Shown piece after piece: positions 34,893 to 38,448 of a stretch of DNA of 64,000 nt. Positions within the stretch are counted from its first letter, which is position 1, and every line of letters starts with the position of its first letter. Below the pieces are notes generated by a model. It did not search any database and had not been told where the DNA came from. It worked only from the letters and a program-made list of their open reading frames with translations. This DNA comes from Klebsiella phage vB_KpnP_PW7, in sequence record PQ409239.1; one strand, written 5' to 3'. Made by a program: the position numbers and the translations under genes.

Positions 34893-35388
34893 TAGCTGGT
34901 AGGTGGCTCAGAAGCTGCTGCTATTTGTGGTAGTGTTCATAGTCATAATGCTATTGCTAATTAGGCTATTGGACGTGTCGGCTCCATACATAGCATTTAT
35001 CATCACTGTAGTTATCCTCTGGAAACTTAGTGATAAATCCGGTGGTGACAAGCCGCCAGACTAATAACAAACTGAACCAGTGCCCTTTACTACTCTCCGA
35101 AGGGCATTGGTTAACTTAGGTCAGACTAATGCAACCTGAAGAAAAGTTTACTGAGTATGTTGATGCTCTTGTAACTGTTGAATTAGCTTTAGCTATGGCA
35201 CGTAAATACAAGGAACCAGTTAATAAGCCTGTTGCTCAGTGTGCTCGTTTAGTAGCAATGCGTTGCAAAGATTTAGCAAATCGTCAGCTCTTTCTTGGGG
35301 TTAGTAAAAGCGAGTGTCCCGGAGTGATGGTTAATATGATGCGAATCACGTTTGACGAAATGATTAGCTCATAGTATAAGTAGCTCAT

Positions 35389-35460
35389 GGTGAGTTAGCT
35401 AATTGGTGAAGCGGCTGACTGTTAATCAGTGACAGAGTGGTTCGAGTCCACTACTCACCG
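35389..35460 (+). tRNA. tRNA-Asn (anticodon GTT), CCA encoded
   Basis: Acceptor GGTGAGT/ACTCACC, anticodon loop CTGTTAA, T-arm AGTGG-TTCGAGT-CCACT, then GCCA. Confidence 0.8.
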
Positions 35461-35467
35461 CCATATA

Positions 35468-35539
35468 GGGCAGTAGGCGATGTAGGGTTATGCGCCACGA
35501 CACAGGTCGTGAACATCGGTTCGAGTCCGATACTGTCCA
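35468..35539 (+). tRNA. tRNA-like element with non-canonical D/anticodon arms (possible pseudo-tRNA)
   Basis: Acceptor GGGCAGT/ACTGTCC (one G-U), T-arm ATCGG-TTCGAGT-CCGAT, CCA encoded; hand-folding finds only a 6-nt loop (CACAGG) between CACGA/TCGTG. Confidence 0.35.
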
Positions 35540-35546
35540 CCACTAT

Positions 35547-35620
35547 CGGAGTTTAGCTCAGTTTGGCAGAGCACCTGGTTTGGGACCAGGGGGTCGTAGG
35601 TTCAAGTCCTACAATTCCGA
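35547..35620 (+). tRNA. tRNA-Pro (anticodon TGG), CCA encoded
   Basis: Acceptor CGGAGTT/AATTCCG, D-arm GCTC-AGTTTGGCA-GAGC, anticodon loop TTTGGGA, T-arm GTAGG-TTCAAGT-CCTAC. Confidence 0.85.
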
Positions 35621-35631
35621 CCAAATTCTAT

Positions 35632-35705
35632 TGGGGTATCGCCAAGTTGGTTAAGGCATCGGACTTTGATTCCGACATTCGCAAGTTCGAATCTTGCTAC
35701 CCCTG
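35632..35705 (+). tRNA. tRNA-Gln (anticodon TTG), CCA encoded
   Basis: UGGGGUA 5' end as in E. coli tRNA-Gln; anticodon stem TCGGA/TCCGA, loop CTTTGAT; T-arm GCAAG-TTCGAAT-CTTGC; position 1-72 is a U-U mismatch. Confidence 0.8.
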
Positions 35706-35721
35706 CCAGTTTTATATAAAT

Positions 35722-35794
35722 TCCCCGTTAGGCTTAGTGGTAAGTGACCCATAGCAGGCATGTTATGATACAGGTTCGACTCCTGTACGGGGAG
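35722..35794 (+). tRNA. tRNA-like element with apparent 8-nt anticodon loop (CAGGCATG); anticodon not assignable
   Basis: Perfect acceptor TCCCCGT/ACGGGGA, T-arm ACAGG-TTCGACT-CCTGT, GCCA 3' end; anticodon stem CATAG/TTATG encloses 8 nt. Confidence 0.4.
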
Positions 35795-35810
35795 CCAACA
35801 TCCTATCAAT

Positions 35811-35877
35811 GAGCACCTTTGATTGAGGTCGGAAGCTGAAATGATGCTTCTGTAAAATGAATCCACAGAGGGTGCTC
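35811..35877 (+). other. long imperfect hairpin (GAGCACC...GGTGCTC) with nested GAAGC...GCTTC stem
   Basis: Inverted repeats seen directly; inside the ORF-free RNA region. Confidence 0.4.
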
Positions 35878-36149
35878 TTTGATAGTTTTCGTGGGCGATT
35901 ATGCGGTTTTTTAGAAACGAACCAATAACATAAATGCAAACGATGATGTTGTTCTGATGGTTGCTTAATTGCATAACCATTAGTCAGGAGTGAGTCGTCC
36001 TGATTATCAAACGACCATGGAGTGTCCCCGTCCGTGTATTAGAAACGGGGAACCAATATTACTGGTTGCACGAGATGGCCTGGCATGTTCAGGTCAGGAC
36101 TAAGTGTGACGCCGCTAGATTGGAGAACTGCTGCGGTAAGCTATAGACT

Positions 36150-36183
36150 CCAACCGGAGGTTCGAATCCTTCACCAGTAACCA
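36150..36183 (+). ncRNA. tRNA-like 3' half (T-arm GGAGG-TTCGAAT-CCTTC, acceptor ACCAGTA, discriminator A, CCA); 5' boundary unresolved
   Basis: Canonical T-loop and encoded CCA; the only matching 5' acceptor (TACTGGT) lies about 120 nt upstream at 36060, so the element is either intron-containing/atypical or a fragment. Confidence 0.3.
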
Positions 36184-36325
36184 TCTAAAAGAGTGCTGAA
36201 TGTCACGTTAGTGAATGGACAAGGTATCCTTGCAGTGCTCTTTTCGATGGTGAGCCATCAAGTCCAGACGATATCTGAGTGACTTTAAAAACAGATGGAG
36301 CCAGGTGGAATCCCTGGCAATCAAT

Positions 36326-36389
36326 TCCGGTGTAGGTACTAGCGTTGTGCACAAACGTGAATGTGTTGGTTCGAGTCCAACTGCCGGAA
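36326..36389 (+). ncRNA. short (64 nt) tRNA-like element, D-arm apparently missing; CCA encoded
   Basis: Acceptor TCCGGTG/TGCCGGA (2 G-U), T-arm GTTGG-TTCGAGT-CCAAC, central hairpin with 7-nt loop GTGCACA. Confidence 0.3.
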
Positions 36390-36622
36390 CCAATTCGAGG
36401 TAGTGCTATGTGGTCTATGCCCTTTAACTAGGCGCATTGTAAATACAACCCATGTAGTACTACCCCGAATTGGAAGAATTATGGTAGCTAGAAACATGAG
36501 TAACCGTTCGAATCCTTGGGATTAGTCGTCGGTGGAAAGTGTATATCGCTGTGGTGAGATTCCACGAGCTACCTGCAATATTATGGCAAGCATGGTTGAG
36601 TAGATGTGGTTCGACTCCACCC

Positions 36623-36697
36623 GGTGAGGTTCACCTTCACTAGCGTGATTGGTTCACGAGAGACTTAGTACCGTAGGTTCAATTCCTACCCTTGCCA
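36623..36697 (+). ncRNA. tRNA-like element (acceptor GGTGAGG/CCTTGCC, T-arm GTAGG-TTCAATT-CCTAC), internal arms non-canonical
   Basis: 75 nt; overlaps a second T-arm-like motif GTGG-TTCGACT-CCAC at 36606..36620. Confidence 0.3.
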
Positions 36698-36920
36698 CCT
36701 TACATTTGGGGTAAACGAGTGGTATCACAATACCATATCGAGCGTAAGTATCCAGGGAAGCTCTGGGACGCCCCCACCTTATTATGAACCAGTAAAGAAA
36801 CAAGTCTGTTATTTCCCATTAACTAATTAATAGTTGAGAGAGAAATCGCCCTGGGGAGGGTTGTCGATAACGCTATATCGTAAGACTTGCTGGTAAGAAT
36901 CCAGCATGGTTCACCTATTT

Positions 36921-36995
36921 GGGGTCGTAGCAAATCGGTTAAGCAACTAGGACAGTAGTGCCTAGTGTGGGTAACACGTAGTCCCACCGACTCCA
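36921..36995 (+). ncRNA. tRNA-like element (acceptor GGGGTCG/CGACTCC, discriminator A, CCA encoded) with enlarged T-loop
   Basis: 5' half GGGGTCGTAGCAAATCGGTTAAGC resembles the tRNA-Gln gene in this cluster; T-stem GTGGG/CCCAC encloses 11 nt. Confidence 0.3.
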
Positions 36996-37285
36996 CCATT
37001 TAACGCAGCAACATAGCCCTGATTGCATAGCACTCTAAAGACAATACTGGTGAGGCAGTCCAGTAGCTGCTATCCTACTACCATACCCCCGACAAGGTGT
37101 ATGTATGGAGAAGGGAACTCCTTAAATCCCAGCCTGAGCAAGTAGTTAAACGAGCTATCAACTCAATACTGAGCCAGCTAGTTAGGTATTAAACGGGTTT
37201 ATGCTCCCGCATCGCAACCAAAACTAGCCTCTGAAAGGCAAGGGTTTAATGAAAGCAAGCCTCCCAGCTATGGGTAAATAGCACT

Positions 37286-37348
37286 AAGCCCCCTTTAGGA
37301 ACGGATGGAGCCAATACCATCTCAAGCCGACAAGGGGGCTTTTTTATT
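37286..37348 (+). terminator. terminator closing the RNA-gene block (10-bp stem AAGCCCCCTT/AAGGGGGCTT, structured loop, TTTTTTATTT)
   Basis: Strong GC stem followed by a T-tract; overlaps the ORF-track start of the next gene, whose start was therefore moved. Confidence 0.5.
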
Positions 37349-37376
37349 TGAAAGCGATAACCCACAGAGGAATACC

Positions 37377-37799
37377 ATGGACTTAGAACAAGAGATTCAA
37401 AACAAGGGTGCTAACGTAGCTCCCCGAATTACTCCTTCCCATATTGAAGACTGTATTGCCAGTGTTCATTTCTTCACAGCAGCAGATGGTGCGACAGCTG
37501 TTATGGGTGACAGCGATACCATTAGCAATGACAGCCTACAGTCACTTAAGCTGCTGACTATCTGCGTGATGGTTCTGAAAAACGGCTTTACTGTTGTTGG
37601 TAAGTCTGCCTGTGCATCCCCAGAGAACTACAATGCTGACATCGGTAAAGACGTTGCCTGGCGTGATGCCAAAGAACAGATTTGGCCACTTGAGGGCTAT
37701 CTGCTGAAGCAGAATCTGTACGAGCAGAAGCAGAGCCAGGATATGCTGAAAGGCTTCCTGGAAGATGACAACTGTGATGGTGGGGGTTGTAAGATATGA
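37377..37799 (+). CDS. hypothetical protein
   Basis: Start at MDLEQE downstream of the terminator. Confidence 0.45.
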   Translation: MDLEQEIQNKGANVAPRITPSHIEDCIASVHFFTAADGATAVMGDSDTISNDSLQSLKLLTICVMVLKNGFTVVGKSACASPENYNADIGKDVAWRDAKEQIWPLEGYLLKQNLYEQKQSQDMLKGFLEDDNCDGGGCKI

Positions 37800-37953: not shown

Positions 37954-38448
37954 ATGGACACTAAGATTAACTTCCGTAACTACATTGGTACCAAAAGCTT
38001 ATTAGCTTTCCCAATGACCAAAGGTGATTACTGTAAGCTTCGTAACTGGGACTTACCGTCTAACGAGGAACCAGAAGAGGAAGGATACTTGGTTGAATAC
38101 CCCGACTCACTGTCCAATCATCCGGACTTCCGTGGCTACATCTCATGGTCACCAAAAGCTGTTTTTGAAGCAGCATATAATAGCTACACAGAGGGTTGTA
38201 CCTTTGGTCAAGCTATCGAGTTGCTTAAAGCAGGTCACCGAATGGCCCGTAAGGGTTGGAATGGAATTGGTATGTACATCACCTATGTACCTGCTGAAGA
38301 ATGGGCGAGTAGTGCATTAGAACGTCCATGGTCACATGACCTTAAGCCAATCCCATGGATTGGGATGAAGACAGTAGGTGATACCTTTGTACCGTGGTTA
38401 GCCTCTCAGTCTGATATTCTGGCAGAAGACTGGGTATTAGCAGAATAG
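37954..38448 (+). CDS. DUF2829-domain protein (Tad2-like, candidate anti-Thoeris sponge) with about 70-aa N-terminal extension
   Basis: FGQAIELLKAGHRMARKGWNG.GMYI and C-terminal VPWLASQSDILAEDWVL match the DUF2829 hallmarks as recalled (...LK.GKKV.RKGWNG... / ...PWlaSQtDlLAEDWei). Confidence 0.55.
   Translation: MDTKINFRNYIGTKSLLAFPMTKGDYCKLRNWDLPSNEEPEEEGYLVEYPDSLSNHPDFRGYISWSPKAVFEAAYNSYTEGCTFGQAIELLKAGHRMARKGWNGIGMYITYVPAEEWASSALERPWSHDLKPIPWIGMKTVGDTFVPWLASQSDILAEDWVLAE

Follow-up and report, generated by a model that had tools for sequence, protein, structure and literature searches.

Our analyses of a 64,000-nucleotide (nt) stretch of DNA from the N4-like Klebsiella phage vB_KpnP_PW7 (PQ409239.1; hereafter the window) have identified a 171-nt RNA element, termed module A, that resembles the messenger-like half of bacterial transfer-messenger RNA (tmRNA). 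Module A lies in a 1.9-kb block (positions 35389–37348) that has no credible open reading frame (ORF). The comparisons described below indicate, as the main result of this work, that module A belongs to an unannotated and widespread family of miniature, head-less relatives of tmRNA. A first-pass annotation of the block had missed this element, which is the most informative one that the block contains. The reading that we favor, and to which we assign a probability of about one half, is that the block is a co-transcribed RNA island punctuated by RNase P sites, with a re-wired mini-tmRNA as its centrepiece. To our knowledge, tmRNA is regarded as universal in bacteria and as following a fixed two-domain logic of a tRNA-like head and an mRNA-like body, and we know of only a handful of tmRNA copies in phages, all of them conventional or head-only.

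Module A runs from an invariant 5' sequence (GUUUUCGU) through a leader hairpin to a tag frame, a helix-5-like hairpin, two pseudoknots (PK2 and PK3), and a terminal A-CCA (Table 1). The peptide of the tag frame may be compared with the host tag ANDENYALAA; the frame has no in-frame start codon, an in-frame UAG lies 8 codons upstream, and its first 8 nt (GCAAACGA) are identical to those of host tmRNA. The leader aligns with pseudoknot PK1 and the resume region of E. coli tmRNA, and the bases at -5 and -4 before the resume codon are invariably U and A, which we take to correspond to U85 and A86 of E. coli tmRNA, the bases that set the reading frame. All of the 154 related copies have exactly 10 codons followed by a stop, and they specify 21 different peptides of the single form AN[DE][DEN]xx[LM]x[AV]A, ended by UAA or UAG. 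The mean entropies at codon positions 1, 2, and 3, computed on 50 distinct tag windows, are 0.61, 0.42, and 0.94, respectively, third positions thus being the most variable; in the same windows the final codon pair is invariably G[CU]N GCN, variation being confined to third bases, and the stop codon is UAA in 48 and UAG in 2. Tags of relatives read ANDDVVLMAA or ANEEAYLMVA, and the changes between genera are synonymous or conservative (GCT GCT to GCA GCC; D to E). The phage consensus ends in ...L[AM][AV]A, whereas bacterial tags end in ...YALAA, and the constraint is therefore the phage lineage's own and not merely inherited. At the level of sequence, these patterns demonstrate a coding-type constraint on the tag. 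An alternative frame initiated at an AUG (MQTMMLF and a stop) was rejected, since neither its length nor its sequence is conserved and it is absent in Serratia phage 3M. The last tag codons and stop (35960–35968, GUUGCUUAA) are also a 9-nt perfect complement of UUAAGCAAC at 36939–36947, within a tRNA-like unit located further downstream in the block (36921–36998); a match of this kind was reached by 5 of 300 shuffles, it shows no covariation in relatives whose tag ends in GCUGCUUAA, and it is probably due to chance.

The structure predicted around and beyond the tag, and its conservation, are likewise demonstrated by comparative alignment. Over 27 pairs in an alignment of 29 diverse copies, 73.6% of cells are paired vs. 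35–46% when the partner is slid, 12 pairs have changed on both sides, and these values were reached by none of 500 shuffles; helix 5 and stem 1 of PK2 carry most of this signal, the outer pairs of helix 5 covarying (AU 16 / GC 12, and others). Stem 2 of PK2, read by fixed anchors in 122 parsed copies, is perfectly complementary in every one of them, in the form of four different stems (CCGA/UCGG in 60 copies, GUCG/CGAC in 47, CCAG/CUGG in 9, and CCAA/UUGG in 6). For PK3, a gap-free alignment of 26 distinct copies of class I gives two stems of 6 bp each with 95.8% of cells paired (28–54% when slid) and six doubly changed pairs, again reached by none of 500 shuffles; the stems of class II were read by eye and are subject to register ambiguity. 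Stacked on each other, the two stems of PK3 make up 12 bp, as many as an acceptor/T-arm minihelix has. The equivalent of the upstream PK1 is a hairpin with limited covariation.

These observations bear on the possibility, which we consider very improbable, that, apart from its three intact tRNAs, the block is a functionless relic of tRNA gene decay and recombination and that module A is a captured fragment of bacterial ssrA. In its favor, the module content of the block is highly plastic between close relatives, positions 36470–36620 have no homologue in the related loci fetched, two of the tRNA-like units described below (units 2 and 5) are poorly conserved, and mobile DNA frequently integrates at ssrA (PMC4131195). 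However, compensatory changes are found in all of the helices tested, and this covariation largely refutes the idea; none of the 154 copies has a broken tag frame, and the consensus of the tag is the lineage's own; and the element is present in strictly lytic, non-integrating phages. Moreover, the element, at ~170 nt and with a leader and pseudoknots that belong to it, does not correspond to any one stretch of host ssrA, local identity being limited to the resume region.

The distribution of module A is broad. A blastn search with positions 35886–36060 matched 402 phage records, whose groups include P1-like, lambdoid, FelixO1-like, ViI-like, T1/Jersey-like, and N4-like phages. Copies are found in Ackermannviridae (viz. 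Serratia phage 3M, Magnus, MK-13, and Det7), in Salmonella phages 7-11 and SE131, in the P1-like P7 and Ro157c2YLVW, in FelixO1-like phages, in Jersey-like and T1/Weber-like siphoviruses, and in the lambdoid phage HK633. Nearly all of the matches in the 402 records fall on unannotated sequence, and at most loci inspected the element is located in or beside tRNA genes; the P7 copy is flanked by the Op(ban) operators and tRNA-Asn, and the HK633 copy by Q/PR' and the holin gene. Scanning IMG/VR with a degenerate pattern yielded at least 120 contigs, many of them prophages of sequenced isolates, and a megablast search with the HK633 copy detected the element in prophages of 135 of 5,426 complete E. 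coli genomes, with no annotated feature beneath the match in the 25 records listed. No earlier description of module A was found in full-text searches of the literature, in the paper on the related Klebsiella phage KP8, or in a 2014 survey in which phage ssrA is limited to Bxz1-type mycobacteriophages, Bacillus phage G, and the head-only form of DS6A (PMC4131195).

ARAGORN was run at default settings, with introns allowed, and at the relaxed setting -ps80, and Rfam was searched over the whole window at the gathering score and over 35000–37700 at E<=10. The region 35881–36173 gives sub-threshold matches to tmRNA (RF00023; 20 bits, E 1.9e-5) and tmRNA_permuted (RF04321; 28.9 bits), both anchored on AUAAAUGCAAACGAUGAUGUUGUUCUGAUGGUUGCUUAA, and relatives of module A score 11–36 bits. 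The first-pass annotation had suggested that the block might hold intron-containing or permuted tRNAs, and a broader form of this idea would add split tRNAs or a conventional two-piece permuted tmRNA, assembled after processing. We consider it very improbable. The best Rfam score, although sub-threshold, is indeed that of tmRNA_permuted, ARAGORN with introns calls positions 36060–36183, and no others, a tRNA-Pro with a 24-nt intron, and at -ps80 it calls a "tmRNAp" at 35769–36183. However, such calls appear at relaxed thresholds only, and in relatives they borrow the T-arm of a neighboring, unrelated tRNA; no intron family is matched in Rfam; and the interior of the RNA at 36060–36183 (module B) consists of two hairpins, one covarying and one invariant, and not of an anticodon arm and an intron. 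The ARAGORN intron calls, the Rfam results, and the module B hairpins thus lend the earlier suggestion no support. Promoter-like sites of the sigma-70 type are also located directly upstream of GUUUUCGU in siphovirus and FelixO1-like copies (TTGACA-17-TAGATT/TATAGT, immediately upstream in C1, KP591P3, and mistaenkt), and because they abut this sequence no acceptor piece precedes the coding piece. Finally, module A is not significantly complementary to any of the other modules of the block.

Several specific partners for a two-piece molecule were considered and rejected. A permuted tmRNA with unit 5 or a neighboring tRNA as its acceptor fails on the promoter-like sites just described, on the observation that the upstream unit differs between phages without covarying with PK3, and on the RF04321 alignment, which borrows the T-arm of a tRNA-Ile. 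Module B was rejected as a trans-acting tRNA-like partner, since several relatives lack it and its place in the order of modules changes. Module X (described below), unit 2, and the unit at 36921–36998 were also dropped as trans partners, since many loci lack such a unit and the complementarity is without significance; the best case, the 9-nt match to 36921–36998 that was reached by 5/300 shuffles, does not covary. At many loci, no tRNA-like unit with CCA is found within -1000 to +1500 nt of module A.

How module A might then reach the ribosome is suggested by its 3' end, which reads ACGGGGA-A-CCA at 36045–36055. Four nucleotides (AUAU) separate A-CCA at 36055 from U36060, the first base of module B, and the spacing from CCA to the next unit is the same after tRNA-Asn (CCA-UAUA) and after unit 2 (CCA-CUAU). 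N-CCA is in register in 14 of 18 N4-type sequences, while one further sequence has it shifted by 1 nt and another reads ACCU; among N4-type copies the discriminator (A or G) and the downstream bases vary and the CCA is fixed. Scanning the + strand of the block revealed no promoter-like site of the sigma-70 type, and a scan for terminators found a single intrinsic terminator, at its end, both of which support a single island.

From this anatomy we infer the following course of events. The island, at the end of a rightward gene cluster, would be organized like a tRNA array, in which three tRNAs, non-decoding units, and long hairpins would act as punctuation for RNase P and 3' exonucleases, releasing the RNAs between them. 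Module A would be a 171-nt descendant of tmRNA that has lost the canonical tRNA-like domain and kept the mRNA-like half (viz. the frame-setting AUAAAU leader, the resume codon GCA, the 10-codon tag, the stop in the helix-5 loop, and two pseudoknots). A cut by RNase P at U36060 followed by exonuclease trimming would expose the tRNA-like CCA end built by the pseudoknot; module A could then be aminoacylated and enter stalled ribosomes, and nascent chains would receive a phage-specific peptide replacing the host degron ANDENYALAA. For vB_KpnP_PW7 itself, this pseudoknot-built CCA end is the best-supported model of a route to the ribosome.

A number of observations weigh against this reading. Module A scores below the Rfam gathering score of 47, its relatives being sub-threshold as well, and ARAGORN at default settings detects no tmRNA in any of 160 loci. 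No 5' acceptor strand and no T-loop are present inside 35885–36055, and the 3:70 pair of the acceptor-like stem of PK3 is C-G in place of G3.U70, so that charging by alanyl-tRNA synthetase is not expected. An RNase P cut 5' of the acceptor-like stem might separate the tag from the CCA end. P1-like copies read ...GGA-G-GCA in place of N-CCA, and the commonest class (siphoviruses and lambdoid phages) has stems of 4–5 and 4 bp and no CCA; since the CCA and 12-bp design is confined to N4-like copies while the tag is conserved everywhere, this entry route cannot be general. Lastly, N4 itself has no module A, and the element is hence dispensable for the N4-like group. A canonical tmRNA was rejected on the same grounds, ARAGORN at default finding none in the window either and Rfam giving sub-threshold matches only, and a conventional tmRNA of one or two pieces is excluded because there is no head, no T-loop, no tmRNA called by ARAGORN, and no complementary module.

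A broader proposal is more tentative. Enterobacterial phages of many families may carry an unrecognized class of mini-tmRNA which has no canonical tRNA-like domain and whose tag is translated, either by way of its own CCA end, as in vB_KpnP_PW7, or by docking on host tmRNA. In the docking route, the invariant 5' segment would pair with codons 3–6 of the host tag, and ribosomes rescued by the host tRNA-like domain and SmpB would finish on the phage template. The same segment suggests an alternative that we consider unlikely, namely that module A is not translated and is instead an antisense RNA or decoy against host trans-translation, its 5' end pairing with host tag codons 3–6 and its body titrating SmpB, S1, or RNase R, so that phage proteins made from damaged or cleaved mRNAs would be spared tagging and degradation. 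The sequence (U)AGUUUUCGU(C) is a perfect 10–11-nt complement of nt 96/97–106 of E. coli ssrA (GACGAAAACUA), that is, of tag codons 3–6 (GAC GAA AAC UA), as verified against an annotated ssrA gene. It is the longest tmRNA complement in 32 of 34 variants, a complement of at least 10 nt inside the tag ORF arose in only 7 of 2000 shuffles, and an exact copy of the target 20-mer is present in more than 120 gammaproteobacterial species. Most copies of module A have no tRNA-like domain, and an RNA of the DS6A type, consisting of the tRNA-like domain only, has been reported to inhibit tmRNA (PMC4131195). However, an untranslated RNA would not be expected to hold 10 codons, a stop, and third-position variation in 154 copies. 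The match was noticed post hoc, a complement of at least 10 nt anywhere in tmRNA is reached by 68 of 2000 shuffles, and in vB_KpnP_PW7 the first 3 nt of the 10-mer are within the basal stem of the hairpin at 35803–35885. A 10-bp duplex is also easily unwound by a translating ribosome. We therefore treat the match as a lead only, toward either an anti-tmRNA function or docking on host tmRNA. A global duplex with host tmRNA was set aside as uninformative (RNAduplex -82 kcal/mol vs. -84 +/- 6 for shuffles).

Comparison with known systems places module A apart from each of them. It shares with bacterial tmRNA (RF00023, RF01849-51, RF04321) a frame without a start codon (GCA AAC GA ... G[CU]N GCN UAA), a stop in the helix-5 loop, H-type pseudoknots downstream, and, in N4-like copies, a 3' CCA. 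It differs in its length (~170 nt vs. ~360 nt), in having only two downstream pseudoknots, in the absence of a 5' acceptor strand, of a T-arm and T-loop, of G3.U70, and of a P2 helix linking a tRNA-like domain to the pseudoknot ring, and in an acceptor-like helix that is formed by a pseudoknot; its sub-gathering Rfam scores, the default miss by ARAGORN, and a tag ending in ...L[AM][AV]A rather than ...YALAA set it apart as well. In the tRNA-like structures of plant viruses, a pseudoknot allows a CCA end that can be charged to be presented by an RNA extending further in the 5' direction. Module A resembles the 3' structures of the turnip yellow mosaic virus (TYMV) type in its ~12-bp acceptor-type helix made from an H-type pseudoknot and in its N-CCA end, a likeness of mechanism and not of homology; unlike them it has no anticodon-arm mimic, and there is no sequence relation, the domain of the host and the role also being different. 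The tRNA cluster of phage T4 includes two stable RNAs of ~120–140 nt, C and D (species 1 and 2), which have CCA ends and are freed by tRNA-processing enzymes. Modules B and C of the present block resemble these in general description; the T4 cluster, unlike that of vB_KpnP_PW7, is not known to have a tmRNA-like member. The block is comparable to GOLLD and ROOL RNAs in being a long ORF-free structured region of phages and prophages adjoining tRNA genes, but it is modular, with units of ~70–170 nt that shuffle independently, and is not one large RNA; Rfam gave no match to GOLLD or ROOL in the whole window at the gathering score or in 35000–37700 at E<=10. Like the RNAs of the Bxz1 group, Bacillus phage G, and DS6A, module A is a phage-borne derivative of a host ribosome-rescue RNA (PMC4131195). 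The tmRNAs of the Bxz1 group and of phage G are complete and conventional, unlike module A, and DS6A illustrates that a phage can retain one half of tmRNA (Hudson, Lau and Williams, 2014; PMC4131195). The half retained in DS6A is the tRNA-like one, and that retained in the module A family is the opposite, mRNA-like one; the enterobacterial phages with module A belong to many families, and the survey lists none of them (PMC4131195).

Table 1. Features of the ORF-free RNA block of vB_KpnP_PW7, in positions of the window.
Feature	Positions	Strand	Basis
tRNA-Asn (GTT), canonical	35389–35463	+	ARAGORN; Rfam RF00005 58.5 bits
Unit 2, cloverleaf with closed anticodon arm (6 bp + 4-nt loop)	35468–35542	+	ARAGORN "tRNA-???"; strict scan; fold
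tRNA-Pro (TGG), canonical	35547–35623	+	ARAGORN; Rfam 66.1 bits
tRNA-Gln (TTG), canonical	35632–35708	+	ARAGORN; Rfam 61.5 bits
Unit 5, tRNA-like with T-arm, anticodon arm degenerate	35722–35797	+	Strict scan; ARAGORN only at -ps80
Long hairpin, conserved covarying base, hypervariable apex	35803–35885	+	Fold -36 kcal/mol, z = -5.5
Module A, tmRNA-like mini RNA, 171 nt	35885–36055	+	Sub-threshold Rfam; alignments; covariation
Tag frame GCA AAC GAT GAT GTT GTT CTG ATG GTT GCT TAA (ANDDVVLMVA, stop)	35936–35968	+	Sequence
Helix-5-like hairpin, stop codon in loop (CUGAUGGUU-GCUUAAUUGCAU-AACCAUUAG)	35954–35983	+	Covariation
Pseudoknot PK2: stem 1 UCAGGA/UCCUGA, stem 2 GUCG/CGAC	35984–36015	+	Covariation
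Pseudoknot PK3: S1 36016-21/36031-36, S2 36025-30/36046-51; A36052, CCA 36053-55	36016–36055	+	Covariation
Module B, 124-nt tRNA-like RNA	36060–36183	+	Acceptor covariation; strict scan
Long hairpin (AAAAGAGUGCUG...CAGUGCUCUUUU, G.U pairs on + strand only) and small hairpin	36187–36260	+	Alifold; sequence
Module C: conserved 5' domain 36261–36325 and 67-nt D-armless unit 36326–36392	36261–36392	+	Strict scan; alignment
Long hairpin E	36393–36470	+	Alifold on 8 sequences
tRNA-like unit without encoded CCA and without D-arm	36623–36699	+	Rfam tRNA 21.6 bits (below 29); fold
tRNA-like unit, 11-nt T-loop, aberrant anticodon arm	36921–36998	+	Strict scan; fold
Module F, conserved non-coding, common to Gamaleyavirus and N4	37005–37140	+	BLAST; alifold
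Terminal hairpin and U-run, intrinsic terminator closing the block	37286–37347	+	Terminator scan 37324–37341 (+) TTTTTTATTT; alifold

The block as a whole is conserved among relatives of vB_KpnP_PW7. Positions 35300–37400 are 89% identical to phage KP8 (Schitoviridae, Enquatrovirinae, Kaypoctavirus) over 95% of that length, and parts of the block are 85–90% identical in the E. coli Gamaleyavirus phages PBM-3, ECBP1, IME11, PhAPEC5/7, Bas96, and Mimir124; in KP8 and the Gamaleyavirus relatives it lies between gp46/gp47-like and gp48/gp49-like genes. The first-pass annotation had described 1.9 kb without an ORF and had proposed a comparison with related Schitoviridae, and both points are borne out: the ORF-free block is kept in Kaypoctavirus, in Gamaleyavirus, and in N4 itself. 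The longest mechanical ORF inside it has 109 aa, none of the six internal mechanical ORFs that were tested matches a PHROG, and a protein-coding explanation was dropped on that account, while both flanking genes do match (phrog_6022 and phrog_322). In N4 (NC_008720, 32113–33631), a 1.5-kb ORF-free gap between gp47 and gp48, in which the record has no annotated feature, contains tRNA-Asn, Ser, Thr, and Pro, modules C and F, long hairpins, and a terminator; the tmRNA-like element is absent from it. Several stems of the block have G.U pairs that are workable on the + strand only and are therefore RNA and not DNA structures.

In the records of relatives, the block bears no annotation, or a few tRNAs with a "tRNA-OTHER", or small hypothetical ORFs. 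The record of K60PH164C1 (OY978778.1) wrongly presents it as "RIIA/RIIB lysis inhibitor" pseudogenes, and in the records of phi1_146050, Bas96, and Mimir124 it is covered by strings of hypothetical proteins of 30–70 aa, which are spurious features. Homologues of the downstream genes at 37377–37796 and 37954–38448 are labelled "anti-CRISPR" in some records and "hypothetical" in others.

Three canonical tRNAs and at least six non-canonical elements had been proposed for the block from the sequence alone, and this count agrees with our results from Rfam and from a strict scan for units with a 7-bp acceptor, a 5-bp T-stem, a T-loop of 6–12 nt, and N-CCA, with zero mismatch. Only Asn, Pro, and Gln pass the Rfam tRNA gathering score of 29 (58–66 bits). 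The strict scan returns seven units (viz. 35389–35463, 35468–35542, 35547–35623, 35722–35797, 36060–36183, 36326–36392, and 36921–36998), and Gln is an eighth, with a single 1:72 mismatch. Five of the six non-canonical units (units 2 and 5, modules B and C, and 36921–36998) have the acceptor, T-stem, and N-CCA, the sixth (36623–36699) being without CCA. All six score below gathering in the Rfam tRNA search at E<=10, only 36623–36699 being reported at all, and their anticodon loops are of 4/6 nt, absent, or irregular, and never of 7 nt. The block hence consists of structured RNA genes, among which several units are truly non-canonical, failing the covariance model for tRNA even though their acceptor stems covary. 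Some details of the first-pass annotation do not hold. The five tandem units measure 75–77 nt rather than 72–74 nt; the TTCGA T-loop ascribed to all five is lacking in Pro, where it is TTCAAGT; and the acceptor stems, said to be perfect throughout, are so except for the mismatch in Gln.

Unit 2 has the acceptor GGGCAGU/ACUGUCC-A-CCA, which is of the alanine type (G3.U70 and A73), and ARAGORN reads its anticodon as two nt, "ca"; it has no Rfam tRNA match at E<=10, and among the loci compared it is found in the window and in KP8 only. The 6-nt anticodon loop proposed for it is obtained with a 5-bp stem, the other form being a 6-bp stem with a loop of 4 nt. Unit 5 (acceptor UCCCCGU/ACGGGGA-G-CCA) likewise has no Rfam match at E<=10. 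Its minimum-energy fold is not a cloverleaf and ARAGORN detects it at the relaxed threshold only; the 8-nt anticodon loop previously read in it was not reproduced, leaving the architecture of a +1 frameshift-suppressor tRNA without support. The KP8 record annotates this unit as tRNA-Leu, and it occurs in about six close Kaypoctavirus relatives only. As they are confined to close relatives, units 2 and 5 may be decaying tRNA genes. The acceptor of unit 5 (35722–35728/35788–35794) is identical in sequence to stem 2 of PK3 (36025–36031/36045–36051), and in other phages the PK3 stem is kept alongside a different upstream tRNA-like unit; the identity may be a coincidence, or may mark a recombination joint that put the N-CCA trailer behind PK3.

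Module B has the acceptor UACUGGU/ACCAGUA-A-CCA and the T-arm GGAGG-UUCGAAU-CCUUC, with two hairpins where the D and anticodon arms would be, and it corresponds to the "3' half" whose partner had been placed about 120 nt away. Its acceptor varies by compensatory double changes (UAUCAGU/ACUGAUA and UACCAGU/ACUGGUA), one inner hairpin covaries (CCUG/CAGG to CUUG/CAAG) while the other does not vary from relative to relative, and module B is restricted to 42 N4-like records. The D-armless element reported at 64 nt was recovered by the strict scan within module C, at a length of 67 nt; its acceptor is UCCGGUG/UGCCGGA-A-CCA, with a change from G.U to G-C in relatives, and module C is present in 104 phage records, N4 included. 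The 65-nt 5' domain of module C (AGUCCAGACGAUAUCUGAGUGACU...GCCAGGUGGAAUCCCUGGC) matches N4 and is 85–100% identical in unrelated Klebsiella temperate phages, Shigella DS8, and Salmonella 9NA, and by these matches it constitutes a second widely shared, unannotated RNA module. The element with an 11-nt T-loop was also recovered, at 36921–36998; its acceptor GGGGUCG/CGACUCC-A-CCA is of the tmRNA/tRNA-Ala type (G3.U70, A73), and it is also present in phi1_146050 and K60PH164C1.

The first-pass annotation had suggested decoys against host anticodon nucleases, and these six units could be decoys or substitutes directed at such enzymes or at other tRNA-targeting defences. We judge this to be improbable, and somewhat more so than the antisense role considered above for module A. 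Some phage tRNAs are known to withstand cleavage or to substitute for host tRNAs that have been cleaved, and the units keep the acceptor, T-arm, and CCA while their anticodon loops are aberrant or absent; modules B and C are conserved across genera with covarying acceptor stems and are hence selected RNAs. However, modules B and C have no mimic of the anticodon arm, which is the part that an anticodon nuclease recognizes, units 2 and 5, which are limited to close relatives, have the appearance of tRNA genes in decay, and nothing found here ties the units to a defence system. A role in processing (punctuation) would explain equally well why the units always stand between other RNAs.

Long hairpins are the other recurrent component of the block. 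The hairpin that had been placed at 35811–35877 is real and longer than was claimed (35803–35885). Its base (CUAUCAA-GAGCACC / GGUGCUC-UUGAUAG) undergoes two compensatory changes in relatives (CUAUCAA/UUGAUAG to CUAUCGG/CCGAUAG, and GAGCACC/GGUGCUC to GAGUGUA/UACACUC), and it probably serves in processing or as punctuation. The repeated TTAGAAACG..AACCAATA motif was also located, at 35911–35927 and 36039–36058, and both the hairpin and the motif belong to, or flank, the tmRNA-like RNA. The hairpins at 35803–35885, 36187–36245, and 36393–36470, and those of HK633 (L041) at 1116–1195 and 1365–1470, share, even between unrelated phages, the conserved base ACAGGUAAGAGCAU ... GUGCUCUUUCCGGU, in which a U.U mismatch is also conserved, whereas their apices are hypervariable. 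Some of the apices (in loci L069, L102, and L042, and in N4) are complete CCA-less tRNA-like units with GGGUUCGAAUCCC T-arms, and the comparison indicates that the long hairpins of vB_KpnP_PW7 have lost these apical units. A role of the flanking hairpins as CCA acceptor stems was dropped, the apparent UCCA in some prophages being situated within the stem. Downstream of the tmRNA-like element in lambdoid and siphovirus copies lies module X (HK633, 1470–1560; L042, 1470–1600), with the acceptor UGUGGUG/CACCACA, an unusual T-arm-like hairpin GCCGG-AGAUCAGCG-CCGGC, and G-CCA; in phage C1 it is degenerate and without CCA.

A BLAST comparison of the block with 14 related loci resolves it into independent modules, namely A (35869–36051), B (36049–36191), C (36261–36395), F (37005–37140), and the terminator region. 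Their order is A-B-C in vB_KpnP_PW7, KP8, PhAPEC7, and Mimir124 and A-C-B in PBM-3, Bas96, ECBP1, and KKP 3715, and module B is absent from four Klebsiella phages; modules are thus shuffled, gained, or lost among relatives while each stays intact. The long hairpins that flank them could be processing sites, recombination joints, or both. Module F is 71–90% identical in all Enquatrovirinae examined, including N4, and its consensus structure is weak. The 150 nt at 36470–36620, which contain two TTCGA-type motifs (at 36506 and 36609), have no homologue among the related loci fetched and appear, on that comparison, to be specific to vB_KpnP_PW7.

If the proposals made here are correct, module A would account for part of the ORF-free block in the N4-like phages examined (Kaypoctavirus, Gamaleyavirus, and N4), and hundreds of phage genomes would at present carry spurious small ORFs or no annotation over such RNAs. 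Module A would represent a compact, widespread, and unannotated family that keeps only the body of tmRNA, with its tag under coding-type selection, and that spans model and therapy-relevant phages, including P1/P7-like, FelixO1-like, ViI-like, T1/Jersey-like, and N4-like phages and lambdoid prophages of E. coli, among them those of Shiga toxin-producing strains. By either route, its own CCA end or docking on host tmRNA, the host degron ANDENYALAA would be replaced by a tag of the phage's choosing, which has no SspB determinants and in which the end recognized by ClpX is altered. The manipulation by phages of ribosome rescue, and of what becomes of truncated proteins, would then be routine, and module A would represent either a new means of delivering a template to the stalled ribosome or a new anti-tmRNA mechanism.

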